32,000 nucleotides of DNA from Candidatus Velamenicoccus archaeovorus (GTDB lineage Bacteria > Omnitrophota > Gorgyraeia > Velamenicoccales > Velamenicoccaceae): NCBI RefSeq assembly GCF_004102945.1, contig NZ_CP019384.1, positions 1,590,001 through 1,622,000 of the forward strand, read 5' to 3'. Below, piece after piece: positions 1,043 through 29,161 of the stretch. Position 1 is the stretch's first letter; the number at the start of each line of letters is the position of its first letter. Made by a program: the position numbers and the translations under genes. The notes under the pieces are model-generated. The model saw only the letters and a program-made list of their open reading frames with translations, had not been told where the DNA came from and did no database searches.

Positions 1043-1055
1043 CAATTCTCCTGGT

Positions 1056-1946: not shown

Positions 1947-1947
1947 C

Positions 1948-3351: not shown

Positions 3352-3357
3352 TTGGTT

Positions 3358-3900
3358 TTATTTTCTTCCAGTAACACTGCGTAAAGCAAGAGTTTTTAAT
3401 CTTAATTTGGCCAATATCTTATTCAATTTATGCCGTTCATTACTATTTAAACAAGAAGCGAGCTTTTTCATTTCTAAATAATAAGAAGGAGTAACGGAAT
3501 TACGCAATTCTTCGCCTTTCCTGGTAATTTTAACAATACTTAACCTGCGGTCTTTCTCTGAGCCCTGCCGTTCAACTAAATTCCTGCGCACAAGATTATC
3601 AACCAGTTCCGTTATATTAGCGCGGCTTACCAATAACAAGTCGCTCAATTCTCTATGAGTACATCCCTTGTTTTCACTGCGACTTATAATATTTAAAATA
3701 TTGAGCGTGGAGCGGGAAAGCCCGCTAGCTTCAAGCTTAGACGCAAGATGGTTAAAGATTGCATCGTGCGTATAAATCAGGTTTAAAAACAGCTCTGCTG
3801 AATGCCAATGGAACCATTTGGATTTTTTGCCGTAATCCCGCAGATTACTCAAATAGTAACTTGGCCGCTTATCCTCGCTTGTCTTTTCTATTCTTTGCAT
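3358..3900 (-). CDS. MarR-family transcriptional regulator
   Basis: 180-aa ORF with a winged-helix core (HRELSDLLLVSRANITELVDNLVRRNLVERQGSEKDRRLSIVKITRKGEEL). First gene of the efflux operon. Confidence 0.8.
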   Translation of the reverse strand: MQRIEKTSEDKRPSYYLSNLRDYGKKSKWFHWHSAELFLNLIYTHDAIFNHLASKLEASGLSRSTLNILNIISRSENKGCTHRELSDLLLVSRANITELVDNLVRRNLVERQGSEKDRRLSIVKITRKGEELRNSVTPSYYLEMKKLASCLNSNERHKLNKILAKLRLKTLALRSVTGRK

Positions 3901-3969
3901 GTCTGCCTCCTTTTTATACGGTTGCTATTATTTATAGCACAAAAAGCCATATTTGTCAATATCTTAAAT

Positions 3970-3983
3970 GTTAATATATTAAC
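3970..3983. promoter_or_regulatory. Perfect 14-nt AT-rich palindrome GTTAATATATTAAC, candidate MarR operator
   Basis: Read directly from the sequence, 70-83 nt upstream of the marR-family start (3900, minus strand). MarR regulators typically bind short palindromes in their own promoter. Confidence 0.35.
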
Positions 3984-4056
3984 TAATTAAGCCCATGCTT
4001 GCCAAAAGAATCAGGAGATACTCTATAAATTTTCCCTGAACAAATCACAACACCTT

Positions 4057-4094
4057 AGATATCAAGGAATTATATCTCTATTTACTTGATATCT
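4057..4094. promoter_or_regulatory. 10-bp perfect inverted repeat AGATATCAAG-N18-CTTGATATCT upstream of the DUF2924/recombinase pair
   Basis: Arms at 4057-4066 and 4085-4094, about 50 nt upstream of ATG 4142. It could be an operator or a recombinase site; function is unknown. Confidence 0.3.
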
Positions 4095-4141
4095 CTCGAA
4101 CTGTATGGCTATATGTACATGAAGATGAAAGGAGCCGATTT

Positions 4142-4612
4142 ATGACGGAAACAAAACTATCTCAAATATTGGAACTTAGAGAAAAGTCGATCGGTGAACT
4201 ACAGGGAAAATACGCCGAGCTATTCCCAGGTCAACAGACCCCCTCTAACAATAAAGTGTATTTATGGCGCAAGATCGCATACAGGCTGCAGGAGCTGGAA
4301 TACGGCGGAATTTCTGTGGAGGCCCAGAATAAAATCCAGCAGCTAATCCAGCAATTTGACCCCATAAATAACAAGACGCTGCGGCCCGATGATGCCCTTA
4401 AAGAACGTCCTAAGAAAACAAAACTGAGCCGCGACAAGAGACTGCCCATTCCCGGCACAGTGATCATCAAAGAATACAAAGGTATCAAGCTGGAGGTCAA
4501 AATCCTCGAATCAGGCTTTGAATTCCGTAGCAAGGTCTATAAGAGCCTGACGGCCATAGCCAAAGAAATTACCGGCGCGCACTGGAACGGATACCTGTTC
4601 TTCAATCTATAG
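4142..4612 (+). CDS. DUF2924-like small protein, commonly paired with large serine recombinases
   Basis: 156-aa ORF with AAAGGAG 8 nt upstream. The C-terminal motif YKSLTAIAKEITGAHWNGYLFFNL matches my recollection of DUF2924. It ends 3 nt before the recombinase gene. Confidence 0.6.
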   Translation: MTETKLSQILELREKSIGELQGKYAELFPGQQTPSNNKVYLWRKIAYRLQELEYGGISVEAQNKIQQLIQQFDPINNKTLRPDDALKERPKKTKLSRDKRLPIPGTVIIKEYKGIKLEVKILESGFEFRSKVYKSLTAIAKEITGAHWNGYLFFNL

Positions 4613-4615
4613 GGA

Positions 4616-6262
4616 ATGATCATGGAAGAGACAAAACAATCCAAGAAACGCATCTACTGCGCCATTTACACGCGCAAATCAACCTCTGAAGGACTTGATC
4701 AGAACTTCACATCCCTTGATGCTCAAAGAGAAGCCGCCGAAAACTACATTAACAGCCAAAAACATGAAGGCTGGGTTGTGCTTCAAGAACCCTATGATGA
4801 CGGAGGATTCACAGGCGCAAATATGGATAGGCCTGGACTACAAAAACTACTTTCAGAGATCAAGAATCAGAAAATCAACTGCGTCGTGGTCTACAAAGTC
4901 GATAGGCTATCCCGCTCCCTGACGGATTTTGCGCAGTTGCTCGAATTCTTTGACAAAAACAACGTGACATTTGTTTCTGTAACGCAATCATTCAACACCA
5001 ATACCTCAATGGGCCGACTGACGCTGAACATCCTCCTTTCTTTCGCGCAGTTTGAACGTGAAATTGCCCGCGAAAGAACCAAAGACAAGATGTCCGCTGC
5101 CAGGAAACGCGGCCAATGGACCGGCGGCATAGCTCCCTTAGGCTATTGCGTGGATGACAATAAGAAATTAATCGTAGACCCCGAAGGCGCAAAGGTAGTC
5201 CGTGAGATCTTTGACCTCTATCTCAAGGGCAACTCTACGCTCAAAATCGTACATATGTTCAATGAGAAGGGCTATAAGACGAACAAGATAGCCTGTAAGA
5301 ACGGCAAAACCTTAGGTGGGGTCAAATATAGCGTTGCAAGAATCCAATGGATGCTCCGGCATCCGATCTATATGGGTAAAGCACTATACAATGGCCAGAT
5401 TTATGATGGCGAGCATGAAGCTATTATCGACGAGGAAACCTTCAAGAAAACCCAAGCCTTGCTCAATGAAAACCACAGGGAACGAAAAGCAACAAAGAAC
5501 GTAGACTGCACAGGCTTATTGAGCCGTATTCTACACTGCAAGATCTGCGGAACCTATATGACACATACCTATACCATAAGAAACGGCACTCACAAATACC
5601 GCTATTACACCTGCACCAATGCTCAGAAGCTTGGCCATAGCTCCTGCCCTACCAGATCCGTCAATTCCAAGGCAATCGAAGACGCCGTGGTCAACTGTCT
5701 GCGAGAGATCTTCTCCGATAAAAGCAAAAGAGAAAAACACGCCTATAAACAGGAAACCGACGCTCTTCTGTCGCCTGTTTGGGACACCCTGCATCCACAA
5801 GAAAAGCGGCGCATCTTCAAGATATTGCTCAAGGAAGTCGACTATACGGCCAGTAGCAAAAAACTCGGCATAACGCTCGCCGATAACGACCTGAGGCTTG
5901 AGTTTGATGCGGATTTACAGCAGGTGCGGCCTTTAAACAAGTGGCACAAAGAAGAAGAAATCAAAAAAGAACCCACCGTTCGAACAATGCTTGTCTTAGC
6001 TCATCAAGTCCAACAGCTCGTCAATACTGGAAAGATCAAGCATCCCCGCGAGGCTTGTAAGTGGCTTAACCTAAGTGTGACGCGCATGGATCAAACCATG
6101 AATACTCTTTTCCTATGTCCTGCCATTCAAAGTGAGATCCTCTCTACCGACACGCCTGCCATCAACGCGCTCACAGAGTTCAAAATTCGCCCTCTCCTCA
6201 AAGAAGCCATCTGGACCGATCAATTAGCCAAGTGGCAAACCTTGATCGCCGGTAACCGCTAA
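4616..6262 (+). CDS. Large serine recombinase (resolvase/invertase N-domain + recombinase domain + zinc ribbon)
   Basis: 548 aa. N-terminal catalytic motif YCAIYTRKSTSEGLDQ..SLDAQREA and VYKVDRLSRS. A Cys cluster (CKICG...YYTCTN...SCP) fits the zinc-ribbon recombinase domain, followed by a long C-terminal extension. Confidence 0.9.
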   Translation: MIMEETKQSKKRIYCAIYTRKSTSEGLDQNFTSLDAQREAAENYINSQKHEGWVVLQEPYDDGGFTGANMDRPGLQKLLSEIKNQKINCVVVYKVDRLSRSLTDFAQLLEFFDKNNVTFVSVTQSFNTNTSMGRLTLNILLSFAQFEREIARERTKDKMSAARKRGQWTGGIAPLGYCVDDNKKLIVDPEGAKVVREIFDLYLKGNSTLKIVHMFNEKGYKTNKIACKNGKTLGGVKYSVARIQWMLRHPIYMGKALYNGQIYDGEHEAIIDEETFKKTQALLNENHRERKATKNVDCTGLLSRILHCKICGTYMTHTYTIRNGTHKYRYYTCTNAQKLGHSSCPTRSVNSKAIEDAVVNCLREIFSDKSKREKHAYKQETDALLSPVWDTLHPQEKRRIFKILLKEVDYTASSKKLGITLADNDLRLEFDADLQQVRPLNKWHKEEEIKKEPTVRTMLVLAHQVQQLVNTGKIKHPREACKWLNLSVTRMDQTMNTLFLCPAIQSEILSTDTPAINALTEFKIRPLLKEAIWTDQLAKWQTLIAGNR

Positions 6263-6510
6263 TCAAAACCTGCCTGAAAAATTCCAGTTTCTCGCCAATT
6301 ATTCGATCAAAATACGCGATATATCGTCGAATAATCGCGACACTGACTCCAAGAAACTAATCGCCAATTCCGAGATAAAGAGATAGTTTGGCGAGATTTA
6401 CTTGGCTAGATCTTGCGAACCTGCAGGAGGATTTGAAGCTGAGATCGTAAACGCTAAAACAATGAAAAAAATTATGCCCTAACTCTTTGACACAGCAAGA
6501 CAAAGAAAAA

Positions 6511-6575: not shown

Positions 6576-6904
6576 TGGTTGCGGGGGTCCGATTTGAACG
6601 GACGGCCTCAAGGTTATGCTTTACTACTACAGCTTTCGCTGCCACCGGCACTATTCCGGCTTTGTAGTCCGGACTATCCCTTAATCCTCATTTTAAGAGG
6701 ATTCCTGCCAACTAGTCTCTACACCTTCTCCCACCGTTTTGATTCGCTTTTACGAATGCAAAACGAATCAATGGGAGCTTGGCTCGGTATTACCCTGGCT
6801 TAAAGCCGAGGGCTTCACCGAATTTGACAGGTTTTCCATCGGCCGTTACCGGCCGTGGGACCCATTGTTGAGCCTTGCGAGCTACCAGGCTGCTCCACCC
6901 CGCG
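6576..6904 (-). tRNA. Initiator tRNA-fMet(CAU) gene interrupted by a 252-nt intron in the anticodon loop
   Basis: The exons are 6904-6871 (CGCGGGGTGGAGCAGCCTGGTAGCTCGCAAGGCT) and 6618-6576 (CATAACCTTGAGGCCGTCCGTTCAAATCGGACCCCCGCAACCA). Joined, they give a 77-nt cloverleaf very close to E. coli tRNA-fMet. Initiator marks present: C1xA72 mismatch, A11:U24, loop CUCAUAA, T-loop TTCAAAT and an encoded CCA. Only 2 of the 3 canonical G:C pairs are present in the anticodon stem. Confidence 0.9.
6619..6870 (-). ncRNA. Group I intron (IC3-like, tRNA-type), no ORF
   Basis: The 5' exon ends in U and the intron ends in G (..GUAGUAAAG|CAUAA). Core strings match the Azoarcus tRNA-Ile and cyanobacterial tRNA introns as I recall them: GUCAAAUUCGG (6828-6818), CCGAGCCAAGC (6787-6777), AAGGUGUAGAGACUAG (6727-6712) and GCAGCGAAAGCUG near the 3' end. 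There is a GNRA-capped hairpin GGCCG-GUAA-CGGCC. A possible 4-bp P1 forms between exon GGCU and intron GGUC. Confidence 0.85.
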
Positions 6905-15491: not shown

Positions 15492-16787
15492 TTAGGTTGT
15501 TTTTCCTTTCCTGATTTTGATTTTCGCCGCCTTGATCGCCTGAACGATATGGCGCCGGCCCGGACACAGATAGGCGCACAAGCCGCATTCGATACAATCC
15601 ATGATCCCGTACTCTTGAGCCAAGTCCAGTCGTCCTTTGGCGATGGCCAGCGCGATCAGGCCAGGATTCAGGCCTATGGGACAATTCTCGACGCACTGCC
15701 CGCAACGCACGCAAAAAGACTCTTCTTGTTCCTTTTCCTCATCCTCGTCCAAGGCCAGGATGCCGCTCGTCCCCTTGATCACCGGCGCCTCAGGCGTGAA
15801 CTGGGCGATGCCCATCATCGGCCCGCCCATAATGATCCTCTTGGGCTCCCTTGTCATCGGCCCGCACTGCTCCAAAAGATCTTTCACCGGCGTTCCCAAA
15901 CGCGCCAGAAGATTCTTCGGATTCTCCAGGCATGCGCCGGAGACCGTCATCACGCGCTCATAAAGGGGTTTACGGAAATAAACGGCCTCGTAAACGGCAA
16001 ACACCGTGCCGACGTTCTGCACGAGGACGCCGATGTCAAAAGGGAGTTTTCCCGGCGGGACCTCCCGGCGAAGACACGATTTGATCACCTGCTTCTCGCC
16101 GCCCTGCGGATAGGCCGTTTTAAGGACGACCACGTGCCACCCCAGGGACCCGGCTGCTTCCTTCATGCGACGGATGGCCTGCGGCTTGTTGTCCTCGATG
16201 GCGATAAAAACATTCTCCGGCTGTATGGTCCTGGCGACAAGCTTGACCCCCTCGATGATCTGAAGGGATCTCTCGATCATAAGCCGGCTGTCCGCCGTCA
16301 AATACGGTTCGCACTCCGCGCCGTTGACGATAAAATCCTTTATCGGCCGGGCGGGCGCCAGCTTGATATGCGTCGGAAACGTGGCGCCGCCGAGACCGAC
16401 GATGCCGGATTCAAAAACAATGGTCCTGATATCGGCCGCCGTCAGCGAGGCGATCTCCCCGGCCGTCCGTGGCTTCATCGACTCCGCCGCCTCGTCTTTG
16501 CCGTCTGACTCGATCTCGATGGCCCGGCAAAAACCAAAAACCGGATGCGGAAAATCGGCGACCTGTTTGACCGTCCCGGAGATGGACGCATGCACGGGAG
16601 CAAAGACGCCCTTGTCCGACGTCGCCAGGCAATCGCCGCGCCTGACATGGTCCTGCGCCTTGACAAACACGCGGTCGAGCCTTTTTCCTAAATGTTGTAC
16701 GAGGGGGATGACCACGCGGCGAGGCAGGGCCGCCTGTTCGATAGGTTTGTTCTCGGTGAGATGTTTATGCTCTTCGATCCTGACCAT
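15492..16787 (-). CDS. rnfC: Rnf complex subunit C
   Basis: 431 aa with an RnfC barrel-sandwich N-terminus, the GLGGATFPTHIK motif, a SLBB-like region and two C-terminal 4Fe-4S motifs (CVRCGQCVENCP, CIECGLCAYLCP). Confidence 0.9.
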   Translation of the reverse strand: MVRIEEHKHLTENKPIEQAALPRRVVIPLVQHLGKRLDRVFVKAQDHVRRGDCLATSDKGVFAPVHASISGTVKQVADFPHPVFGFCRAIEIESDGKDEAAESMKPRTAGEIASLTAADIRTIVFESGIVGLGGATFPTHIKLAPARPIKDFIVNGAECEPYLTADSRLMIERSLQIIEGVKLVARTIQPENVFIAIEDNKPQAIRRMKEAAGSLGWHVVVLKTAYPQGGEKQVIKSCLRREVPPGKLPFDIGVLVQNVGTVFAVYEAVYFRKPLYERVMTVSGACLENPKNLLARLGTPVKDLLEQCGPMTREPKRIIMGGPMMGIAQFTPEAPVIKGTSGILALDEDEEKEQEESFCVRCGQCVENCPIGLNPGLIALAIAKGRLDLAQEYGIMDCIECGLCAYLCPGRRHIVQAIKAAKIKIRKGKTT

Positions 16788-18027
16788 AGAACTTCAATAA
16801 CCCTCCAATGCCTGCAATGACCAGAAAAGCGCTGACGCCCAGGAGGATCTTCACCGAACCGATGCGGTCGGCCAGGGGCGCGGCGATCATCATGCTCGCC
16901 AGAAAACCCAGGTGCATGATGACTTCAAGGGAACTGAAGACCTTGCCGCGCATGGAATTATCCGTCAGCTGATGCACCATGGTGTTGGTGACCGTCATGA
17001 TGGGAGATACGGCAAGGCCAAGGACAAAAGCCAGGCCCATCGCTAACAATAGGTGGGGCAACCGGATAACGGCCACGACAAAGCCAGATAATATCACCCC
17101 AGCCGCCAGAATACAAGCGAAAATCGTCCTCATCCCCGAGGTCTTCTGGCCCAGACGGCCATAACCCAGGGAGCCGACAAACAGGCCCAGGCCGAGCGCG
17201 ACCACCAGGAGACCGAGTTCCTTGGTGACGGAAGCAAAGGCCTCCTGCACGAAAACGATCGCCACCACATAAACTGCGCCCAGCGCAGCCCATAGGAAGA
17301 AAAGGATGCCGAAACAAGAGCTTATGCGCGGGTCCTTCTTCAGGAAGTTGACCGCGTCCTTCATCTCTTCCAGGGCGGATTTACGGATCACATCCGCGAT
17401 ATCCTTGCCCACCTCGATCAGCTTTTCCTTTTTGGCCTGCCGGATGAGCTTCGTGCTCAAGAAAAAGATCATGATGCCCGAAATCAAAAAGCTGGCGCCG
17501 TCGATCGTAAAACCGCCCTGGGCCCCCACCATGCCGACAAGGATGCCGCCGAGGCCGAAGCCGAACATGGCGGCGACCATCCCCGTCGTATTCACCAGGG
17601 AATTCGCCAAAAGCAGGTCGTCGGCTTTGACCAAGTCCGGGATGATGGACATCTTGGCCGGCACGTAAAAACGCGCCAGGGAAAACACGATAAAAACGAC
17701 GATATAGATGGGCCATAAAGAGGACAGCCGCATCAGCCATAGGGGGATAAGAAGGACCAAGATGCCGCGCAAAATATCGCAGACGACCATCGTCCGGCGC
17801 CTGTCCCAGCGATCCACATACACGCCGGCAACCGGACCGATCAGGAACACGGGCACGATGGTAAAGGCCATGATCTTGGCCATCTGCGTCGTCGATCCTG
17901 GCGCATAACGATGCACAAGAGCGATCAACGCCATCTGGTCAAGCCTGTCGCCGAATTGCGAAATGATCTGCGCCAGCCAGAGAAGAGAAAAATTACGGTT
18001 TCGAAGAATATTGCGGAATCGGGCCAT
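16765..18027 (-). CDS. MFS transporter (12-TM, unknown substrate)
   Basis: 420 aa, hydrophobic throughout, with the MFS motif VDRWDRRRTM after TM2. The 3' end overlaps the rnfC start by 23 nt. Confidence 0.75.
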   Translation of the reverse strand: MARFRNILRNRNFSLLWLAQIISQFGDRLDQMALIALVHRYAPGSTTQMAKIMAFTIVPVFLIGPVAGVYVDRWDRRRTMVVCDILRGILVLLIPLWLMRLSSLWPIYIVVFIVFSLARFYVPAKMSIIPDLVKADDLLLANSLVNTTGMVAAMFGFGLGGILVGMVGAQGGFTIDGASFLISGIMIFFLSTKLIRQAKKEKLIEVGKDIADVIRKSALEEMKDAVNFLKKDPRISSCFGILFFLWAALGAVYVVAIVFVQEAFASVTKELGLLVVALGLGLFVGSLGYGRLGQKTSGMRTIFACILAAGVILSGFVVAVIRLPHLLLAMGLAFVLGLAVSPIMTVTNTMVHQLTDNSMRGKVFSSLEVIMHLGFLASMMIAAPLADRIGSVKILLGVSAFLVIAGIGGLLKFYGQDRRA

Positions 18028-18078: not shown

Positions 18079-18099
18079 ATAAGCCGATGAGAGGGATTG
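18079..18099 (-). repeat. Displaced copy of the tRNA-Thr 3' end (T-loop C56 to the discriminator plus 3-nt trailer)
   Basis: ATAAGCCGATGAGAGGGATTG is 21/21 identical to 18184-18204. Identity stops exactly between T-loop positions 55 and 56. Confidence 0.9.
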
Positions 18100-18183
18100 C
18101 CCGCCACTAGAACTTCGGCGGGTCCGCCAATCTTTTTGGCGGAAACCTCCTGGCGTGACGCCTTTTACCGGCTCTTCGAAAAG
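18100..18183. repeat. 84-nt insert between the two tRNA-Thr 3'-end copies; contains two CCGCC/GGCGG hairpins
   Basis: CCCGCC(18100-18105)...GGCGGG(18117-18122) and TCCGCCAA(18123-18130)-TCTTT-TTGGCGGA(18136-18143). Confidence 0.8.
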
Positions 18184-18186
18184 ATA

Positions 18187-18259
18187 AGCCGATGAGAGGG
18201 ATTGAACCTCCGACCCGCGCTTTACGAAAGCGCTGCTCTACCAACTGAGCTACATCGGC
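18187..18259 (-). tRNA. tRNA-Thr(CGU)
   Basis: GCCGATG TA GCTC AGTTGGTA GAGC A GCGCT TTCGTAA AGCGC GGGTC GGAGG TTCAATC CCTCT CATCGGC T. Clean cloverleaf; CCA is not encoded. Confidence 0.95.
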
Positions 18260-18273
18260 ATGAAATCTACTTA

Positions 18274-18369
18274 TACCAACTGTCCCGACGTTCCGCCAGT
18301 CGGCGGAAGTCGGGATCCCGACCGAACGCAAGTGAGCGTCGGGAAGCTACATCGGCACGAAATCTACTT
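18274..18369 (-). pseudogene. Partial upstream copy of tRNA-Thr (13-nt leader + nt 1-21) split by a 62-nt palindromic insert
   Basis: 18345-18369 matches 18248-18272 at 24/25 positions. 18274-18282 matches 18239-18247 at 9/9. The insert 18283-18344 sits between tRNA nt 12 and 13. It folds as nested CCCGAC/GTCGGG and TTCCGCC/GGCGGAA hairpins. Confidence 0.85.
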
Positions 18370-21123: not shown

Positions 21124-21462
21124 TTATCTGACGAACAAATATTTCTTAAAACCGGCGACCTTTTTGTCGCCGATCCCCTTCAAAAGCTTGAGTTCCTCGA
21201 CCGAGTTGAAGCGGCCTTTAAGCGAACGGACCCGCAAAATCTCCTGCGCCGTCTTCTCGCCGATCCCCGGCACCGCCACAAGCTCCGCCATGGTGGCCCG
21301 GTTGAGATCCACGACACAGGGCACCTGCGCATCTGCGTAGACCTCGACAGCGCTCCTGTTGCAGCCAAAGGCCTTGCGGCCGTGCGCCCAAAAAAGACCC
21401 ACGCTCAAAAGGACGCATAGAAAAATAAGGATCTTCCGTTCCTGGGAAGTCAATGAAATCAT
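21124..21462 (-). CDS. comEA: ComEA-like helix-hairpin-helix DNA-binding protein
   Basis: 112 aa with an N-terminal TM/signal and VDLNRATMAELVAVPGIGEKTAQEIL...LKGIGDKK (tandem HhH). The start forms an ATGA overlap with the leuS stop. Confidence 0.8.
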   Translation of the reverse strand: MISLTSQERKILIFLCVLLSVGLFWAHGRKAFGCNRSAVEVYADAQVPCVVDLNRATMAELVAVPGIGEKTAQEILRVRSLKGRFNSVEELKLLKGIGDKKVAGFKKYLFVR

Positions 21463-23906
21463 GACGCGACGATACTGACAAGTTTTTTAGGCACCACGAT
21501 CACCTTGTGGACAGCTTTGGCGGCCGTCCACTCCCTGACCTTCGGATCAGCCAGGGCCGCCTGCTTGACCTCTTCCTCTCCTGCGTCAACGCTCAATAAA
21601 AGCCTGGAACGCACCTTGCCGTTGACCTGGACAACGTAGGTCGCTTCTTCTTCGACCAGAAGGGACGGATCAAAAGACGGCCATGACGCCTTAAAAACGC
21701 TTGTCTTGTTGCCCAGCATCCGCCACATCTCCTCGCAGATATGCGGCACAAAAGGCGCCAAAAGGACCACGAGGACCCTGACGGCCTGGGCCGCAACGCT
21801 CGAGCGCTGCTCGTCCTCCGTAAGTTTGTAGAGCTCGTTGACCAGTTCCATAATGCTGGAGATGGCGGTATTAAACTTAAAGCCGCCCTCCATGTCGGAG
21901 GTGACTTTTTTGATCGTCTGGTGCATTTTCTTGACGACAGCGTCGAGGCCTTGAGACGACATGCGGCTGCCGCCGGCAGCTGTCCCGAGGCCGTCGGCCA
22001 GGCGCCAGACGCGGTTCAAAAACCGCCAGGCGCCGTCCATACCCTTGTCATTCCAGTCGAGCTCCGCCTCGGGCGGGGCCGCAAAAAGGATAAAAAGCCT
22101 CAAGGTATCGGCGCCGTAATTTTTGATGATCTCGTCCGGATCGACGATGTTACCCCTGGACTTGGACATGACCTCGCCTTCCTTGAGCACCATGCCCTGT
22201 GTCAGGAGGCGCTGGAACGGCTCGCGCACGGCGACCAGTCCCAGATCCGCCAAAAATTTCGTATAAAAACGGGAATACAAAAGATGCAGAACGGCGTGCT
22301 CAATGCCGCCGATATACTGGTCGACGGGCATCCAATAAGCGGCCTCCTCTTTGTCAAAGGGCGCTGTCGCGCACTGCGGAGAACAAAATCTTAAAAAATA
22401 CCACGACGAGTCGATGAACGTCGCCATCGTATCCGTCTCCCGGCGGGCCGGCTTGCCGCATTTGGGGCATTTTGTCTCGACAAACTCTTTGACCTTTGCC
22501 AGCGGGCTTCCGCCCTCTCCGGTGAATGTCACATTCTTGGGCAGGACAACAGGCAAGTCTTTTTCCGGCACGCCGACAACACCGCAGGAAGCGCAATAGA
22601 CGACGGGGATGGGCGTCCCCCAGTAACGCTGGCGCGAAATGAGCCAGTCGCGCAGCCGCCAGTGGACGGCGATCTTGCCCATCATCTTGTCTTCCATCCA
22701 GAGGGAGATTTTCTTCTTGGCGCCGCTGCTGTCCTGGCCGTCGAAGACTCCGGAATTGACCATGACGCCTTCGGTCTCAAAGGCCTCCTGCATCGTCTCC
22801 ACGACCAGCGGCTGATCTTTGGGCTGGATCACGACACGCATGGGCAGGCCATGCTCTTTGGCAAACAGAAAATCCCTCTGGTCGTGCGTCGGCACAGCCA
22901 TGATGGCGCCTGTGCCGTATTCCATCAGGACATAATCCGCGACCCAGACAGGGATCTTCTCGCCGTTGACGGGATTGACGGCATAAGCGCCCGTAAAACA
23001 TCCCTCTTTTTTGACGTCTTCGGCGACCCGCGCCAGCTTGGTCTCTTTAGCAACGCGGTCGATAAACCGCAAAACCTCCTGTTCCTGCGGCTTTCCCGAA
23101 ATAAGCTTTTTCACCAGAGGGTGTTCCGGCGCCAGAACGACGTAGGTCGCGCCGAAAATCGTATCCGGCCGCGTCGTGAAAACCCTCAATATGTCGCCCT
23201 TCTCCAGCTTAAAGAATATCTCGACGCCGAAGCTCTTGCCGATCCAGTTCTTCTGCATCGCAATCACGCGCTCCGGCCAATTCTCCAACCCTCCCAGGTC
23301 GTCCAAGAGGCAATCGCTGTAGGCGGTGATCTTAAGATACCACTGCTCCAGCTCTTTCTCGACAACAGGCGTGTGACAACGCCAGCAGCCGCCGTCGACG
23401 ACCTCTTCGTTGGCCAAAGTCGTCTCGCAACTAGGGCACCAGTTCACACTGGAGGCCTTTTTATACGCCAGGCCGCGCTCCAGCATCTTCAGAAAGATCC
23501 ACTGGTTCCACCGGTAATATTCCGCAAGACAGGTGGAGATCTCCCTGTCCCAGTCATAGGAAAACCCCATGCGCAGGAGTTCCTGCTTCATCCAGTCGAT
23601 GCACTTGAGCGTCCAAGTCTCGGGGTCCGACTTATGCTTGATGGCGGCATTCTCGGCGGGCTGGCCAAAGGCGTCGAATCCCATGGGATGCAGCACCTGG
23701 AAACCCTGCAGGATCTTGTAGCGGGCCACGACGTCGCCGATGGTATAGTTGCGCACGTGCCCCATATGGATGCGGCCCGACGGATAAGGAAACATCTCCA
23801 GGACGTAATATTTCGGCCTGGCCTTGTCCGGGACGGCCCTGTAAAGCTTATCCTCGGCCCAGATCTTCTGCCACTTGCTTTCCAGATCTTTAAAATGATA
23901 ATCCAT
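21459..23906 (-). CDS. leuS: Leucyl-tRNA synthetase
   Basis: 815 aa with a HIGH-type motif (PSGRIHMGHVRNY), a KMSKS-type motif (VMSKSRGN) and bacterial LeuS architecture. Confidence 0.97.
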   Translation of the reverse strand: MDYHFKDLESKWQKIWAEDKLYRAVPDKARPKYYVLEMFPYPSGRIHMGHVRNYTIGDVVARYKILQGFQVLHPMGFDAFGQPAENAAIKHKSDPETWTLKCIDWMKQELLRMGFSYDWDREISTCLAEYYRWNQWIFLKMLERGLAYKKASSVNWCPSCETTLANEEVVDGGCWRCHTPVVEKELEQWYLKITAYSDCLLDDLGGLENWPERVIAMQKNWIGKSFGVEIFFKLEKGDILRVFTTRPDTIFGATYVVLAPEHPLVKKLISGKPQEQEVLRFIDRVAKETKLARVAEDVKKEGCFTGAYAVNPVNGEKIPVWVADYVLMEYGTGAIMAVPTHDQRDFLFAKEHGLPMRVVIQPKDQPLVVETMQEAFETEGVMVNSGVFDGQDSSGAKKKISLWMEDKMMGKIAVHWRLRDWLISRQRYWGTPIPVVYCASCGVVGVPEKDLPVVLPKNVTFTGEGGSPLAKVKEFVETKCPKCGKPARRETDTMATFIDSSWYFLRFCSPQCATAPFDKEEAAYWMPVDQYIGGIEHAVLHLLYSRFYTKFLADLGLVAVREPFQRLLTQGMVLKEGEVMSKSRGNIVDPDEIIKNYGADTLRLFILFAAPPEAELDWNDKGMDGAWRFLNRVWRLADGLGTAAGGSRMSSQGLDAVVKKMHQTIKKVTSDMEGGFKFNTAISSIMELVNELYKLTEDEQRSSVAAQAVRVLVVLLAPFVPHICEEMWRMLGNKTSVFKASWPSFDPSLLVEEEATYVVQVNGKVRSRLLLSVDAGEEEVKQAALADPKVREWTAAKAVHKVIVVPKKLVSIVAS

Positions 23907-25044: not shown

Positions 25045-25358
25045 TCTTTTTCCGACAATGGAAAAAGATGGTGGATGCCGAAACGAGCGTCAATGACCCG
25101 ACAAGGGTCATAGCGAGTTTCGGCGCCCCCACCTTAATGTTTTCCCGACAAGGGAAAAAGTGGTGGATGTCGAAATAAGCGTTGCACAGCGAGTGCGTAG
25201 CGAAGAGGAGCCTCCTCGAAGAGGACAAGCGAAGCAGCTTATTTCGACGCCCCATCCTTAATGTAGTCCCCGACAGGCAAAAAAGATGGTGGATGCCGGA
25301 ACGAGCGTCAATAACCCGGCAAGGGTCATAGCGAGTTTCGGCGCCACCACCGCAATGT
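25039..25358 (+). repeat. Three-unit tandem array of composite palindromic modules fused to the tRNA-Ala 3' end
   Basis: A 13-bp perfect hairpin pairs CCACCATCTTTTT (25039-25051, includes the tRNA CCA end) with AAAAAGATGGTGG (25062-25074). The 61-nt segment 25067-25127 recurs at 25285-25345 (58/61). The middle unit has the same ends (GTGGTGGATGTCGAAAT...ATTTCGACGCC) but a different core. Unit junctions are CCCACCTTAATGT, CCATCCTTAATGT and ACCACCGCAATGT. Confidence 0.85.
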
Positions 25359-25389
25359 AAACCAACAAGGTCGTGCCTAACCCCGGCTC

Positions 25390-25779: not shown

Positions 25780-27257
25780 AAACCTTTGCGCCTCTTTTTA
25801 AAAGCCGCCGCAGACAGGCCTTTATCCTGGTCCTGCTCTTAGGTATCCTCTTCTCTGTCCTGCCGCCTTCTTTTTCGACACCTCAACCCCAAACCCAGGA
25901 CCAGTTTCTGATCCTCACCATCGACAACAAAATCATCGGACCCGTCGTCGCCGACTATATCGATAAAGGCATCACAAGGGCCGAGGACGACGGCTATCAG
26001 GGTGTGATCATCATCTTGGATACGCCGGGCGGCCTCCTGGAATCGACGCGCGCCATCGTTAAAAAGATCATGAACGCCTCGATTCCAATCATCACCTATA
26101 TCGCGCCCTCGGGCTCCCGCGCCGGCTCGGCAGGCGTCTTCATCACCCTAGCGTCCCACGTGGCCGCCATGGCGCCTTCGACGAACATCGGCGCAGCCCA
26201 CCCCGTGGGCGTCAACGGAGAAAAGGGAGAAGACCGCCCGCTCAAAAAAGCCATCGAAGAGTTGACGGAAACCCTGCGGTCCCAGAAAAAACAGAAAATA
26301 TCGCCGCGGACGAAAGAAAAACAATCTCCGCAGAATGAAGAAGCACCAGCCCCCCAGACAGGAAACGTCATGGAGGACAAGGTCCTCAACGACACCGTCG
26401 CCTGGGTTGAAACGATCGCAAAAAACAGGAAGCGCAACGTGGAATGGGCCAAAGAAACGGTCCTTAAAAGCGTTTCCGCCACGGAAAAAGAAGCCATGGA
26501 CAAAGGCATCATCGACTTCATTGCCATAGATACGAACGATCTCCTGAAAAAACTGGACGGCCGCCAGATCGTCATTGCCGATAACAAAACCGTCATTTTA
26601 AATACTAAAAATGCGCTCCTACACCGCACAAACCTGACGACCAGACAAAATATTCTTAATACGCTGATCAACCCCAACATCGCCTATATCCTTATGATGA
26701 TAGGCTTCCTGGGGCTTTTTATCGAGATCACACATCCCGGCGTCATCTTCCCCGGCGTCGCCGGCGTCATATCTCTCGTCATGGCCTTCTACGCCTTTGC
26801 GATCCTGCCGGTCAATTTTGCCGGCTTCCTTCTTATCGGCCTGGCGATCATTCTGTTCATCGCCGAAGCCCTGACACCGGCCACTTTCGGCCTCTTGACG
26901 CTGGCCGGGATTGTCTCCATGCTTCTGGGGTCCCTCATGCTGATTGATTCATCTTTCAGCGGCCTGACCATCTCCCTGAACATCATCCTGCCTTTGGTCC
27001 TGTCTGTCGCGGCCATTGCGATCTTTTTGGTCACCAACGTCGTGCGGGCCCACCGCCGCAAGATCATGACAGGGGCCGAAAGTCTTCCAGGAACAGAAGG
27101 CAAGGCCGGCACAGATATGGCGCCTGACGCAGAAGGCCAGGTTTTTGTGAATGGCGAGATCTGGAGCGCGATCAATAAAGGGCCATTGCCGATCGCCAAA
27201 GATGAAAAAATAAAAGTGATAGGAATTGACAAGGTCAAACTGCTTGTGACAAAATAA
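25776..27257 (+). CDS. NfeD-family membrane-bound ClpP-class serine protease (long form)
   Basis: Signal/TM, then a ClpP-like domain (LDTPGGLLESTRAIV, APSGSRAGSAGVFI, IGAAHPV), then a TM bundle and a C-terminal OB-fold (VFVNGEIWSA...KVIGIDKVKLLV). A charged ~50-aa insertion (KKQKISPRTKEKQSPQNEE...) sits in the protease domain. Confidence 0.85.
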   Translation: MKTFAPLFKSRRRQAFILVLLLGILFSVLPPSFSTPQPQTQDQFLILTIDNKIIGPVVADYIDKGITRAEDDGYQGVIIILDTPGGLLESTRAIVKKIMNASIPIITYIAPSGSRAGSAGVFITLASHVAAMAPSTNIGAAHPVGVNGEKGEDRPLKKAIEELTETLRSQKKQKISPRTKEKQSPQNEEAPAPQTGNVMEDKVLNDTVAWVETIAKNRKRNVEWAKETVLKSVSATEKEAMDKGIIDFIAIDTNDLLKKLDGRQIVIADNKTVILNTKNALLHRTNLTTRQNILNTLINPNIAYILMMIGFLGLFIEITHPGVIFPGVAGVISLVMAFYAFAILPVNFAGFLLIGLAIILFIAEALTPATFGLLTLAGIVSMLLGSLMLIDSSFSGLTISLNIILPLVLSVAAIAIFLVTNVVRAHRRKIMTGAESLPGTEGKAGTDMAPDAEGQVFVNGEIWSAINKGPLPIAKDEKIKVIGIDKVKLLVTK

Positions 27258-27379
27258 GAACCCTGATCGGCCCGCCACAAAGCGTTGGCGGGTTAATTCG
27301 GGCAAATGACTTATGAATGCAGCCCCATAAGTCACGCCCTCATTAAAATTGACAAGGTCAAACTGCTTGTGACAAAATA
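27224..27379 (+). repeat. 33-bp perfect direct repeat of the nfeD 3' end bracketing a 90-nt hairpin-bearing insert
   Basis: AATTGACAAGGTCAAACTGCTTGTGACAAAATA occurs at 27224-27256 and again at 27347-27379 (33/33). The insert contains CCCGCCA-CAAAGCGT-TGGCGGG (27271-27292) and TGACTTATG..CATAAGTCA. Confidence 0.9.
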
Positions 27380-27547: not shown

Positions 27548-28297
27548 ATGAGCTTCCCTCTCATCATCGGCATCATCGTCGTTGTGTATCTCCTGAACTC
27601 TATCAAGATCCTTAACGAATACGAGCGCGGCGTCATCTTCCGCCTCGGCCGCATCCTGGCCAGGCCCAAAGGGCCCGGGGTCATCTTCGTCTTCTTCCCC
27701 ATCGACCGAATGGAACGCATCAGCCTGCGCACCGTGACACTGGACGTGCCGCCGCAGGACATCATCACCAAAGACAACGTATCCGTCAAAGTCAATGCCG
27801 TTGTCTACTACAGGGTCATGGACCCCTCGCATGCCGTTCTGGAAGTGGAAGACTACCACTTCGCCACATCGCAGATGTCCCAGACGTCCCTGCGTTCTAC
27901 CGTCGGGCAGGTCAGTCTGGACGAGCTCCTTTCGGAAAGGGAAAAAATCAACTCGGAACTTCAGCTGATCATCGACAAGGCCACAGACCCGTGGGGCGTC
28001 AAGGTCTCCCATGTGGAGATCAAGCACGTGGACCTGCCGCAGGAGATGCAGCGCGCCATGGCCAGACAGGCGGAAGCCGAAAGAGAGCGCCGCGCCAAGG
28101 TCATCTCGGCCGAGGGCGAATTCCAGGCCTCCCAGAAACTCTCGCAGGCCGCCGAGATCCTCCAGAAACAGCCGATGAGCCTTCAGATGCGCTATCTGCA
28201 GACGCTTATGGACATCTCGACGGAAAAATCGTCCATCATCGTCTTTCCTCTGCCTCTTGAGATGCTCAAATGGTTCAAAACAGAGGGAGAAAGATAA
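27548..28297 (+). CDS. SPFH/Band-7 (stomatin-like) protein
   Basis: 249 aa with an N-terminal TM helix, then [15 protein letters not shown]..., [26 protein letters not shown]. It is the classical partner of NfeD. Confidence 0.9.
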
Positions 28298-28422
28298 CCA
28301 CTTTTTGCCGAAGTGGCGCCCTCCACCAGAACGTTGGCGGGCGGCCTCCACCAATACGTCGGCGGCCGTGCGCCGATGTCCTCGTGGCGCACGCCATCCG
28401 CCGAAGCCTTAGTGGCGGATGG
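28298..28422. repeat. Cluster of five consecutive GC-rich palindromic units downstream of the SPFH gene
   Basis: CCACTT/AAGTGG hairpin (28298-28316). A 25-nt tandem repeat CCTCCACCA..ACGT.GGCGG (28320-28344 and 28345-28369, 20/25). CGTGCGCC/GGCGCACG hairpin (28367-28393). CCATCCGCC/GGCGGATGG hairpin (28394-28422). Confidence 0.8.
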
Positions 28423-28495
28423 CGGAATGGCATGCCTGCCTGACGGCAGGCGAGCGGTGGTCTCAAAAACCATTGGGTTTACGCCCGTGAGGGTT
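28400..28495 (+). pseudogene. 5' portion (acceptor strand to T-loop T55) of a second, disrupted tRNA-Leu(CAA) copy
   Basis: 28454-28495 is 42/42 identical to 28579-28620 of the intact gene (anticodon arm with CAA, variable arm, 5' T-stem). TGGCGGAATGGCAT is shared. It has its own acceptor strand GCCGAAG (28400-28406). An 18-nt hairpin GCCTGCC-TGAC-GGCAGGC (28434-28451) is inserted in the D-arm, with extra nt after the acceptor strand. Confidence 0.8.
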
Positions 28496-28555
28496 TCCGC
28501 CACAAGGCGCTGGCGGACAAAATCACCGCCACAAAGATATAGATATAAAGATTCT

Positions 28556-28638
28556 GCTGGAGTGGCGGAATGGCATACGCGGTGGTCTCAAAAACCATTG
28601 GGTTTACGCCCGTGAGGGTTCGACTCCCTCCTCCAGCA
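28556..28638 (+). tRNA. tRNA-Leu(CAA), type II with long variable arm
   Basis: GCTGGAG TG GCGGAATGGCATACGC G GTGGT CTCAAAA ACCAT TGGGTTTACGCCCGT GAGGG TTCGACT CCCTC CTCCAGC A. CCA is not encoded. Confidence 0.93.
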
Positions 28639-28677
28639 TAAAATTTTCACGAAGGACCCGCCGATCTTTGTGGCGGG

Positions 28678-28702
28678 CGACTCCCTCCTTCGGCATAAAA
28701 TT
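28678..28702 (+). pseudogene. 3' portion (T-loop C56 to discriminator + 7-nt trailer) of the disrupted tRNA-Leu copy
   Basis: CGACTCCCTCCTTCGGCATAAAATT matches 28621-28645 (CGACTCCCTCCTCCAGCATAAAATT) at 23/25. Its acceptor strand CTTCGGC (28688-28694) is the perfect complement of GCCGAAG at 28400-28406. Confidence 0.8.
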
Positions 28703-28728
28703 AAAAAAACGCAGCCCCAAAATCAAAA

Positions 28729-28762
28729 CCCCCTGACAGCAACTGCCAGGGGGTTCTTTTTT
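28729..28762. terminator. Bidirectional rho-independent terminator
   Basis: CCCCCTGACAG-CAA-CTGCCAGGGGG (one mismatch) is followed by TTCTTTTTT on the plus strand and TTTTGATTTT on the minus strand. It lies between tRNA-Leu (+) and the convergent 28796 gene (-). Confidence 0.7.
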
Positions 28763-28795
28763 CCAAGATAATCACATCTCGATCTATCGTCGAGA

Positions 28796-29161
28796 CTAAT
28801 CCTGTTCGTCCTGAGGGCCGCGGGAAGCGCGATCCGGCCTACAGACAAAGTATTTCTTGTCCGGCGTCGAGACGCAAATGCCGGTTTCCTCCTCCCCTCT
28901 GGGCCCGCGGCACTGACACGTGTCGCCTTCGGCCTTGCCTGAACAGGCGTCGATCGCTTCCTGGGGCGGGGCTTTCATTTCGCCTCCGCCTGAAGGATCC
29001 TCTCCATGCCGCGGCGGAGGAAATAAGGATTCTTCGTCCCGAGATGCCGTCTGGGATTCCTCACCAAAGACGCTCGCCGCCGAACATAACGAAAAACATA
29101 AAATCAAACACATCGCTATCTTCTGGCCCAAGACATACGCCGGCATTCTCATCAAAGCCAT
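28796..29161 (-). CDS. Small secreted Cys-containing protein, unknown function
   Basis: 121-aa ORF with a signal peptide (CLILCFSLCSAASVFG), a Pro/Gly/acidic linker and then DACSGKAEGDTCQCRGPRGEEETGICVSTPDKKYFVCRP. Last gene of the ECF operon. The start codon is uncertain. Confidence 0.55.
   Translation of the reverse strand: MALMRMPAYVLGQKIAMCLILCFSLCSAASVFGEESQTASRDEESLFPPPRHGEDPSGGGEMKAPPQEAIDACSGKAEGDTCQCRGPRGEEETGICVSTPDKKYFVCRPDRASRGPQDEQD

Follow-up and report, generated by a model that had tools for sequence, protein, structure and literature searches.

A tRNA-Leu gene split at its T-loop by a short DNA segment carrying a complete tRNA-Leu gene in Candidatus Velamenicoccus archaeovorus

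An old tRNA-Leu(CAA) gene of Candidatus Velamenicoccus archaeovorus, a tiny predatory bacterium of the Omnitrophota, is split in its T-loop by a 182-nt cassette that holds a complete tRNA-Leu(CAA) gene of its own. The most probable history, in our judgment, is that a small hairpin-ended cassette broke the resident gene and brought a replacement tRNA-Leu with it, that the broken gene has been left to decay as a relic, and that gene conversion later acted at the locus. All coordinates refer to the window, the 32,000-nt stretch of DNA that was analysed (NZ_CP019384.1, positions 1,590,001 to 1,622,000), and features lie on its plus strand unless stated otherwise. The comparison set consisted of related Omnitrophota contigs (labelled L001, L002, L081 and so on). 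Our literature search returned nothing relevant on bacterial tRNA genes that are nested or disrupted and have a replacement copy.

Results

The inner gene (28556–28638) is structurally intact. ARAGORN (28555–28639) and Rfam (28556–28638) agree on it as the single intact tRNA-Leu(CAA) at the locus, lying within the block 28496–28677 as the initial annotation had placed it, and it scores 57.7 bits against an Rfam gathering score of 29. It has the features of a canonical bacterial tRNA-Leu, i.e., a class II cloverleaf with a long variable arm, the CAA anticodon and A73, with the acceptor stem GCTGGAG/CTCCAGC and standard pairs at 24 of 24 cloverleaf positions; CCA is not encoded. The inner copy of the related contig L085 scores 59.2 bits, compared with 58.4 bits for resident genes. 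In the seven genes compared, pairing is complete (100% of cloverleaf cells) and double changes occur at 10 pairs, a level reached in none of 500 shuffles. The cassette provides the inner gene with a short leader and trailer, and a sigma-70 promoter scan found no sigma-70-like promoter before it. We presume that this is the working gene and that it is expressed.

The outer gene spans 28307–28695 with the acceptor stem GCCGAAG/CTTCGGC, and three inserts, not one, interrupt it. Its true 5' acceptor strand lies in positions 1–12 (GCCGAAGTGGCG, 28307–28318), contiguous with the orthologous leader; 28299–28318 is 100% identical to L082 (490–509), and all empty-site relatives have the same 5' start. 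The strand had previously been placed at 28400–28406, which is wrong, as the GCCGAAG found there sits inside a hairpin module (TCCGCCGAAGCCTTAGTGGCGGA, 28397–28419). The claim that the outer pieces come from one functional stem is right according to the orthologs, although it had been argued from these coordinates. Positions 8–21 (TGGCGGAATGGCAT, 28420–28433) are 100% identical to 28563–28576 of the inner gene and to the orthologs, and positions 24–55, comprising the anticodon arm, variable arm, 5' T-stem, T54 and T55 (28454–28495), are 100% identical to L081, L082, L089 and the inner copy. Positions 56–73 (CGACTCCCTCCTTCGGCA, 28678–28695) are followed by the original trailer and by a terminator-like hairpin and T run (28720–28762) common to the orthologous loci (aligned with L081 and L082), which a simple terminator scan did not call. 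These exon-like pieces are collinear with the orthologs and carry zero substitutions relative to them. Nevertheless, the outer copy is a decaying relic. In silico deletion of 28496–28677 alone had been predicted to give a second scorable tRNA-Leu; it gave none with either 28400 or 28290 as the start of the joined copy. Only with all three inserts removed does ARAGORN recognise the outer copy. Positions 22–23 are missing, and therefore even perfect removal of the inserts leaves a D-stem mismatch (G12-A23). Pfam returned no family for the two open reading frames that overlap the locus.

The outer copy is the ancestral resident gene, because at least 10 related Omnitrophota loci carry an uninterrupted outer-type gene after the same stomatin gene. 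Uninterrupted tRNA-Leu(CAA) genes directly follow stomatin in L081, L082, L089–L092, L137–L143 and L002, all with the outer-type acceptor stem except L002, and at least 10 orthologous loci lack the cassette. The contig index had no entry for the window's stomatin protein. The initial annotation had suggested looking for empty and filled alleles in relatives, and both exist, the filled one in L085. This independent JGI metagenome contig (66.8 kb), whose 5' part is also present in two Logan assemblies, represents a sister lineage and is the closest to the window in DNA identity (94%, versus 87–90% for the empty-site lineages). It carries the same nested structure, with a cassette lacking 29 nt between two CCGCCACAA repeats. 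Its outer copy is more decayed, having lost the D-loop GG and gained a further insert of ~116 nt that parts the T-stem from the acceptor strand.

Insert 1 (about 101 nt, 28319–28419) follows position 12 in the D-arm of the resident gene and is flanked by TGGCG repeats (28314–28318 and 28420–28424). This part of the locus contains tandem 25-mers (28315–28339 and 28340–28364), which are similar to the 3' ends of the repeat units that follow tRNA-Ala, and hairpins at 28368–28392 and 28397–28419. The second hairpin is the module mentioned above; a relative of it occurs in the tRNA-Thr locus (CCCGCCGAAGTTCTAGTGGCGGG), and L085 lacks it, the site of insert 1 there holding just a 16-nt version (TCCTCCACTAATACTT). 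Insert 2 (20 nt, 28434–28453) carries the D-arm hairpin already described (GCCTGCCTGACGGCAGGC, 28434–28451); the hairpin exists, but it takes the place of positions 22–23 and is no clean insertion. Its site in L085 holds a larger version, and a hairpin of the same family (CCTGCCTCACCGGCAGGCAG) occurs in the tRNA-Thr relic of L134. The hairpin families of both inserts recur elsewhere in the genome and in relatives, and the window outside the locus holds no further exact copy of the 13-bp repeat of the cassette, the 18-nt hairpin or the 25-mer. These two additional inserts, the probable gene conversion of the core and the second affected locus are observations beyond the initial annotation.

Insert 3 is the T-loop cassette (28496–28677), which starts with TCCGCCA and ends with TTTGTGGCGGG. 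Its left-end hairpin (TCCGCCAcaaggcgcTGGCGGA, 28496–28517) shares 82% identity with a hairpin at 27271–27292 and, in its first 14 nt, is related to the tRNA-Thr insert's left end. The right-end hairpin (CCCGCCgatctttgtGGCGGG, 28657–28677) is kept in L085 (CCCGCCaaactttgtGGCGGG) and in the tRNA-Thr inserts, and it contains the right arm (28664–28676) of a perfect 13-bp inverted repeat whose left arm (CCGCCACAAAGAT) is at 28526–28538. The predicted RNA fold of the cassette has the left hairpin and, next to it, a 13-bp stem that encloses the tRNA (z = -3.5). Hairpins of the form CCGCC-N-GGCGG are abundant in the window (16 seen versus 0.97 expected). Alignment to uninterrupted orthologous genes shows that the insertion point is exact: the 5' fragment ends at T55 (28495) and the 3' fragment starts at C56 (28678), as reported before, and comparison with the empty sites of L089 and L082 (Leu) and L131 (Thr) reveals no bases duplicated or lost. 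The junctions, GAGGGTT/TCCGCC and GGCGGG/CGACTCC, have no common core or direct repeat, and the 25-nt repeat (28621–28645 and 28678–28702) comes from the 3' end of the inner gene itself and not from the junctions. A Pfam scan of the surrounding open reading frames found no transposase, integrase or HUH gene near the Leu or the Thr locus; the sole recombinase in the window (4616–6262) lies beside tRNA-fMet, 22 kb from the locus.

The inner and outer copies are nearly the same sequence in the window and far less so in the sister lineage. In agreement with the initial annotation, the 42-nt core is 100% identical (28454–28495 and 28579–28620), the 25-nt repeat is 92% identical with its two mismatches being acceptor-stem differences, the TAAAATT trailer is common to both, and the two acceptor-stem differences are compensatory (3:70 from C-G to U-A and 5:68 from A-U to G-C). 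The L085 inner copy likewise carries GCTGGAG/CTCCAGC as its acceptor stem, together with different, fully compensated D and anticodon stems; 12 of its positions, in four stems and the variable arm, depart from the resident type. Its D arm, anticodon stem and variable arm are those of the resident gene of L144, not of its own lineage. We take the inner gene to be a separate functional lineage, because the L085 inner copy shares the acceptor stem yet has these different compensated stems. No resident tRNA-Leu with this acceptor stem was found among the lineages examined. The 42-nt identity in the window is best read as gene conversion, probably running from the relic to the inner gene; the relic carries insert 2, so conversion from it needs two tracts or loop repair. 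In the opposite direction, the inner copy of L085 may have been overwritten by L144-like sequence.

A parallel case occurs at tRNA-Thr(CGU), about 10 kb from the Leu locus on the minus strand (18082–18356). Read in gene direction, the locus consists of a 5' fragment of the old tRNA-Thr (positions 1–12, 18356–18345), a hairpin-rich insert with a new leader (18344–18260), an intact tRNA-Thr (18259–18187), a trailer, GGAGGTT (18150–18144), a 44-nt two-hairpin insert (18143–18100), and the old 3' fragment (CAATCCCTCTCATCGGCT, 18099–18082). The 44-nt insert places TCCGCCAAAAAGAT...GGACCCGCCGAAGTTCTAGTGGCGGG exactly between T55 and C56 of the relic, and L134 has a 61-nt relative, ending in TTTGTGGGCGGG, at the same tRNA-Thr position. 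On sequence comparison, two tRNA loci share termini: TCCGCCA...GTGGCGGG is common to the Leu cassette and the tRNA-Thr inserts between T55 and C56, without target duplication. The empty Thr site, with an intact gene joined to the original trailer, is seen in L131–L133, and the nested form is seen in L134 and L135, with an inner gene that has a different acceptor stem. The insertion target is ...GGTT in four of four cases (window Leu, window Thr, L085 and L134), and the orientation relative to the tRNA is constant. The intact tRNA-Thr is not inside the T-loop insert; the old gene borders it with position 12 on one side and about position 33 on the other, and therefore a single mechanism is not obvious for both loci. 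The element family has been seen so far at only two tRNA loci in three lineages.

Discussion

The empty sites, L085 and the tRNA-Thr inserts essentially support the proposal, one of two in the initial annotation, that a cassette with a replacement gene entered a resident tRNA-Leu. Foreign DNA would have inserted into the T-loop of the old gene between T55 and C56 and inactivated it, carrying a complete tRNA-Leu(CAA) of a different lineage. The inner gene would now do the work, presumably cut from a longer transcript by ordinary tRNA-processing enzymes, with CCA added later. The relic would subsequently have gained the hairpin modules at 28319–28419 and 28434–28453. In the window lineage, gene conversion from the neighbouring relic would then have overwritten the middle of the inner gene, leaving the two compensated acceptor-stem pairs as the sole differences. 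The cassette itself may be one of a family of non-autonomous elements of very small size whose entry point is the tRNA T-loop, after ...GGTT, with the 44-nt and 61-nt tRNA-Thr inserts as cargo-less members and an enzyme acting in trans. Cassette mobility is what we infer from these comparisons, and the damage to the Leu and Thr genes together points to small hairpin-ended mobile DNA targeting tRNA genes.

Genes for tRNA are classic landing sites of mobile DNA, and known elements stay harmless by rebuilding the 3' end of the gene they enter; work by Williams from 2002 is said to have assigned the tRNA attachment sites of integrative elements to T-loop and anticodon-loop sublocations. The cassette has in common with tRNA-attached integrative elements (P4-like elements, tyrosine-integrase islands and CIME-like remnants) its entry in the T-arm, a replacement sequence that keeps tRNA function and an orphan tRNA fragment that remains. 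It is possible, at clearly lower probability than the cassette history, that a kilobase-scale integrative element with its own recombinase and tRNA-Leu was whittled down to its ends and the tRNA, the 44-nt and 61-nt tRNA-Thr inserts being fully gutted copies. The two accounts differ only in the identity of the mobile unit. The tRNA-Leu locus is a proven landing site, as L083 and L144/L145 have textbook duplicated 3' fragments (GACTCCC[T/A]CCTTCGGCA) spaced by ~110–140 nt units, past which L145 runs on into low-GC foreign DNA. The NfeD gene has at its 3' end a similar miniature element that carries a replacement gene end, accompanied by a 33-nt duplication, and the 29-nt difference in L085 indicates that the cassette has already lost or gained sequence. 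However, the junctions lack the shared core or direct repeat of a tRNA segment that tyrosine and serine recombinases normally leave, and resident positions 1–55 run into a non-tRNA hairpin, not into a hybrid tRNA with a restored 3' end. Both acceptor strands of the intact gene are of the non-resident type, so that a whole second gene is supplied, and no tyrosine or serine recombinase gene is present in or next to the 182-nt insert. No full-length copy was found: the exact-core search of viral contigs gave zero matches, the left-junction pattern gave 37 matches there, all by chance in unrelated non-tRNA sequence, and a blastn comparison of the entire locus with phage and plasmid collections gave only generic tRNA-Leu matches to the inner gene. 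One phage tRNA-Leu(CAA) (L136), recovered from viral contigs with the inner-type 5' half, has its first 26 nt and its acceptor stem as in the L085 inner copy and differs in the remainder; it is a lead, not evidence, on the source of the inner gene.

Miniature IS200/IS605 elements (PATEs) and REP/REPIN sequences are moved by Y1 HUH transposases. Like them, the cassette family is tiny and non-coding with a hairpin at each end, leaves no target-site duplication, lies in one orientation 3' of a short ...GGTT motif, and belongs to a hairpin family over-represented in intergenic DNA. In contrast to them, the cassette ends are mutual inverted repeats (13 bp), its left hairpin abuts the junction without a guide segment, and one member has tRNA cargo; no Y1 HUH transposase (TnpA or RAYT) was found within the 32-kb window. 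A miniature element of the DDE-transposon type (MITE) would account for the 11–13 bp inverted repeat, whereas duplication is seen at none of the four insertions. Several other mechanisms were considered and rejected. A crossover by a serine or tyrosine recombinase would need a shared core, and the two junctions have neither a dinucleotide nor a 7-nt core in common; IS91-type insertion would fall beside GTTC, but here the cut is within GTT/C; an integron-type G/TT crossover would need a TT, which the right junction lacks; and template switching to the complementary D-arm would draw on a match of just 9 nt. We tentatively suggest that Omnitrophota might hold undescribed ultra-small (44–182 nt) hairpin-ended elements that enter between T55 and C56 without target duplication, some with a tRNA cargo of the same anticodon.

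Local duplication, the other reading in the initial annotation, now appears improbable. One copy of the gene would have landed in the other, and the live copy would have changed two acceptor-stem pairs, with no foreign DNA involved. The identity of the two window copies over 42 + 14 nt and their common TAAAATT trailer would be expected, and the cassette leader (ACAAAGATA) and L085 trailer (TAATTTACAAAGGACCCGCC) weakly resemble the flanks of the resident locus, a resemblance that duplication of a homologous locus could explain as well. However, the four substitutions all fall in two base pairs, unlike neutral divergence, the L085 inner copy matches the L144 resident gene at its 12 differing positions, including those in the D stem, anticodon stem and variable arm, and the hairpin termini recur in tRNA-Thr at the corresponding T-loop position.

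Splicing of the outer gene is very unlikely. Group I introns occur in bacterial tRNA genes, e.g., cyanobacterial tRNA-Leu(UAA) and tRNA-fMet, and archaeal disrupted tRNAs (multi-intron, split and permuted) likewise carry interruptions at several positions away from the anticodon, the D-arm and T-loop among them. If the inserts were spliced as in archaeal multi-intron tRNAs, the outer gene would be functional and two tRNA-Leu(CAA) species would be made. Its pieces have no substitutions relative to orthologs, the T-loop insert resembles group I introns in following a U and having G as its last base, and the tRNA-fMet gene of the window contains a real group I intron (57.6 bits, Rfam). Yet Intron_gpI, the model that detects this intron, has no match in 28200–28850, where Rfam shows no intron family at E <= 10, and a permissive Rfam scan of the locus returned tRNA only. 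The insertion is in the T-loop rather than the anticodon loop, and inserts of 44–182 nt are too short for a ribozyme core. The host is a bacterium, and we know of no archaeal splicing endonuclease in bacteria. Moreover, joining the pieces fails to give a perfect tRNA, and in the sister lineage L085 the interrupted copy is decaying, with the D-loop GG gone and one more insert present; the presumed working tRNA is the intact gene inside the insert. Least probable of all is an assembly artefact in which strain variants of the tRNA-Leu locus were merged. Contigs of relatives do often stop at this point (L001 at the stomatin stop, L086–L088 in or just before the locus), but the window matches a closed 1.97-Mb genome (MFS protein 100% identical), the independently assembled L085 has the same architecture with its own sequence differences, and the inserted hairpins are unique DNA, not re-used k-mers.

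The T-loop insertion leaves the resident gene genuinely broken, fewer than 200 bases deliver an entire spare gene, and a second tRNA gene (Thr) has been rebuilt in a comparable way. Such loci break metagenome assemblies, several related contigs ending there, and relic fragments could be mis-annotated. The hairpin modules are a marker of strain-level variation in this uncultured predatory phylum. Should the package prove mobile in its own right, few known cargo-carrying elements would be smaller, and it would offer a route for tRNA gene exchange between lineages. If the suggested family of ultra-small elements is real, the tRNA cargo would let an element pay for the gene it destroys, the altered acceptor stem of the cargo tRNA may give the working copy extra protection, and the broken resident gene would serve as a harmless landing pad for other tRNA-targeting elements.

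Results

The tRNA-Leu locus lies in a spacer of ~500 nt, with a stomatin/slipin gene (27548-28297) on one side and a small conserved gene (28796-29161), encoded on the opposite strand, on the other. The single intact tRNA in this region is a tRNA-Leu(CAA) at 28556-28638 (57.7 bits), called by both ARAGORN and Rfam in agreement with the initial annotation. Neither of the two mechanical ORFs overlapping the locus had a Pfam match. The repeat finder recovered a 42-nt perfect repeat (28454-28495 and 28579-28620), which bears out the claimed identity of the core between two tRNA copies, a 14-nt perfect repeat (28420-28433 and 28563-28576), and a 25-nt repeat (28621-28645 and 28678-28702) with just two mismatches, both of them acceptor-stem differences. 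The break points at T55 and C56, and the two compensatory pairs distinguishing the outer stem GCCGAAG/CTTCGGC from the inner stem GCTGGAG/CTCCAGC, also stand as first described. A perfect 13-bp inverted repeat (28526-28538 and 28664-28676) brackets the intact gene; it is predicted to fold, in the cassette RNA, into a stem around the tRNA and, speculatively, might serve processing. The promoter scan found no sigma-70-type promoter in front of the inner gene, which is probably transcribed by read-through from upstream. The leucyl-tRNA synthetase gene (21459-23906, minus strand) lies ~4.6 kb from the locus.

The outer tRNA-Leu is in four pieces split by three inserts, because its true start is at 28307 and the GCCGAAG at 28400-28406, previously taken as the start, is part of a hairpin module (28397-28419). 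A close relative of this module occurs in the tRNA-Thr locus, and the sister allele lacks the module. The start at 28307 (GCCGAAGTGGCG, positions 1-12), nine bases past the stomatin stop, is collinear with uninterrupted orthologous genes at 100% identity. Positions 1-12 (28307-28318) are followed by insert 1, about 101 nt and rich in hairpins (28319-28419), positions 8-21 (28420-28433), the 20-nt insert 2 in place of positions 22-23 (28434-28453), positions 24-55 (28454-28495), the 182-nt insert 3, or cassette, which holds the inner gene (28496-28677), and positions 56-73 (28678-28695). Deleting only 28496-28677 in silico gave no tRNA call, contrary to the earlier expectation; ARAGORN called the outer copy only with all three inserts removed, and one D-stem mismatch was still left.

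Relatives carry both empty and filled alleles, as the initial annotation had proposed to look for. Orthologous loci were collected from a protein-anchored scan with each species represented by one genome, an exact 37-nt core search in metagenome contigs, and contig look-ups for the closest stomatin proteins. In the empty-site loci (L081, L082, L089-L092, L137-L143), the stomatin stop is followed by a short leader, an uninterrupted tRNA-Leu(CAA) and a terminator, and this single gene has the acceptor stem GCCGAAG/CTTCGGC; a more distant locus (L002) likewise has the simple arrangement. Because the relatives have a simple locus with the outer-type stem, the outer pieces are what is left of the resident gene, and the inner gene is a newcomer.

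A homologous filled allele is present in a sister lineage (L085), a 66.8-kb JGI contig whose left part was also found in two independent Logan assemblies. Read along its length, it has GCCGAAGTGGCG and then, where insert 1 lies in the window, a 16-nt version of that insert that has the TGGCG repeat. A degenerate D-loop follows, then an enlarged insert 2 hairpin and the core, which carries one substitution, through ...AGGGTT. Next come TCCGCCACAAAGATAAAGATATAAAGATCCC, an intact tRNA-Leu(CAA) (59.2 bits), the trailer and the hairpin CCCGCCaaactttgtGGCGGG, and finally CGACTCCC and CCTTCGGCA, separated by an additional ~116-nt insert. It is without exactly the 29 nt found between the window's two CCGCCACAA repeats, a difference of the kind left by slippage, as a deletion or a duplication. 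Over the stomatin region, L085 is the closest to the window in DNA identity (94% vs 87-90% in the empty-site lineages), and the simplest reading is a single insertion in their common ancestor. The outer copy is not under maintenance as a tRNA, because in L085 it has lost the conserved D-loop GG and gained the additional insert.

The tRNA-Thr locus has a parallel anatomy. When the tRNA-Leu locus was compared with the remaining window sequence by local BLAST, a match appeared downstream of tRNA-Thr(CGU), within a nested structure spanning 18082-18356 (minus strand). An MFS transporter gene lies at 16765-18024 (minus strand); its protein shows 100% identity to one from Candidatus Velamenicoccus archaeovorus (phylum Omnitrophota) with a 1,974,201-bp record, and the window very probably derives from this closed genome. 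On the minus strand, the old tRNA-Thr leader and 5' fragment (positions 1-12, 18356-18345) are followed by a hairpin-rich insert, a repeated leader with the intact tRNA-Thr (18259-18187), its 35-nt trailer, GGAGGTT (18150-18144), a 44-nt two-hairpin insert (TCCGCCAAAAAGATTGGCGGACCCGCCGAAGTTCTAGTGGCGGG, 18143-18100), and the old 3' fragment CAATCCCTCTCATCGGCT (18099-18082) with the original trailer. The 44-nt insert sits exactly at T55|C56; the left terminus of the Leu cassette in L085 matches its first 14 nt at all but one position, and in its last part the insert has GGACCCGCCGA...GTGGCGGG in common with the right terminus of the Leu cassette. Three relatives (L131-L133) have the empty site, with the intact tRNA-Thr directly joined to the original trailer. 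Two others (L134, L135) have the nested form, with a 61-nt insert ending in TTTGTGGGCGGG at T55|C56 of the old gene, a hairpin in its variable region that belongs to the insert 2 family, and an inner acceptor stem GCCCGTA/TGCGGGC vs the old GCCGATG/CATCGGC. Because the tRNA-Thr loci of the window and L134/L135 repeat the tRNA-Leu features, an old gene in pieces, a new gene inside it and a conserved-end insert at T55|C56 occur in two tRNA genes and three lineages.

A ~252-nt group I intron (~6619-6870; Rfam Intron_gpI, 57.6 bits) splits the anticodon loop of a tRNA-Met(CAU) gene of initiator type (~6576-6904, minus strand), and ARAGORN called this gene only with the intron removed. The literature found on the organism mentions only a 23S rRNA group I intron. 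Next to this gene ends a low-GC segment (1-6500; 36-48% vs ~55%), probably an integrated island, with genes for a large serine recombinase (4616-6262), a DUF2924 protein (4142-4612), MarR, an outer-membrane efflux protein and HlyD-type efflux.

Discussion

The inner gene appears to represent a separate, functional lineage. It has the same acceptor stem in L085 and the window, and the L085 inner copy departs from the resident type at the D stem (G-U-G/C-A-C), two anticodon-stem pairs and the variable arm, with all changes compensated. Among the seven genes compared, 168 of 168 cloverleaf cells hold standard pairs and ten pairs changed on both sides, values reached in 0 of 500 shuffles. The L085 inner-copy states are those of the resident gene of L144, a more distant relative (stomatin 87% identical), and the inner gene would therefore not be a local resident copy with two mutated pairs. 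Local duplication followed by compensatory drift, the second reading first offered, is disfavoured by this L085 copy. The other reading, a tRNA-carrying cassette inserted into the T-loop, was essentially right, with a wrong 5' boundary and no explanation for the perfect core. The 14-nt and 42-nt identities are best explained by gene conversion from the relic to the inner gene in the window lineage, with a tract that would end before the acceptor stem. Such a conversion would have needed to skip the insert 2 hairpin, and a reverse event in the L085 lineage may have occurred instead. A phage tRNA-Leu(CAA) on a 128-kb IMG/VR contig (L136, 168-254) shares its first 26 nt and the GCTGGAG/CTCCAGC stem with the L085 inner copy, and its anticodon, variable and T arms are different. 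In the related locus L083, a terminator hairpin from the insert there (4349-4375), GCTCCAGC-GAAA-GCTGGAGC, comprises both inner-type acceptor strands in 3'-then-5' order; it could be left over from a junction between genes of the inner type, or could have arisen by chance (about 2%).

Splicing of the outer tRNA-Leu is disfavoured, since positions 22-23 are missing from this copy, no intron model matched at the tRNA-Leu locus, and the copy has decayed in L085. An assembly artefact is disfavoured, as the window very probably comes from a closed genome and the independent L085 contig has the structure too. The arrangement first noticed is real and unusual, and its presence in both lineages argues that it is inherited.

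The insert most resembles HUH-type elements. Insertion at T55|C56 was precise, with nothing duplicated or deleted, the insert always has one orientation relative to the tRNA and lies 3' of ...GGTT, and its ends are hairpins that are mutually inverted repeats. This pattern is most similar to IS200/IS605 miniatures and REP-like sequences (single-strand, HUH-type). No HUH-type enzyme is visible in the 32-kb window, and the 182 nt may be the mobile unit itself or what is left of a larger element. The junctions have no shared crossover core of the sort left by tyrosine or serine recombinases or by IS607, which excludes those routes; integron-type G|TT exchange and IS91-type insertion beside GTTC are excluded by the junction sequences, and DDE-type transposition by the absence of a target duplication. 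The closest known groups are hairpin-ended HUH-type miniature elements and tRNA-targeting integrative elements with their miniature remnants, although the locus fails defining tests of the latter.

Small inserts recur beyond these nested genes. CCGCC-N3-14-GGCGG hairpins number 16 in the window vs 0.97 expected, six of them within the Leu and Thr loci. In the NfeD-stomatin spacer, a ~90-nt hairpin element sits between duplicate copies of the final 33 nt of the NfeD gene (27224-27256 and 27347-27379), which gives that gene a new stop codon (TAA for TAG); the element does not track relatedness, because the window, L089 and L083 have it and L085 and L081 do not. Directly 3' of tRNA-Ala(GGC) are three tandem ~100-nt hairpin units (25045-25365) that had no Rfam match, each starting with TGGTGGATG... 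and ending in GGCGCC.CCACC, a mimic of the tRNA CCACCA end. Their 3' ends are similar to insert 1 25-mers, and in L081 and L001 they vary in number and content, whereas L002 lacks them. In three further loci (L083, 4343-4500; L144, 2330-2830; L145, 2330-2700), the 3' fragment of tRNA-Leu(CAA), GACTCCC[A/T]CCTTCGGCA, recurs behind the gene in one to several classic duplicate copies. Units of ~110-140 nt separate the copies, each starting with the inverted T-arm (GGGAGTCGAAG...) and finishing in GAGGAG, and the arrangement resembles a tandem series of miniature att-flanked elements. Contigs of several close relatives (L001, end 2988; L086, L087, L088) end at or just past the stomatin stop or within insert 2; such tRNA loci apparently break short-read assemblies. 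Judged from the sequences compared here, small insertions directed at tRNA genes and the ends of genes are evidently very active in this clade.
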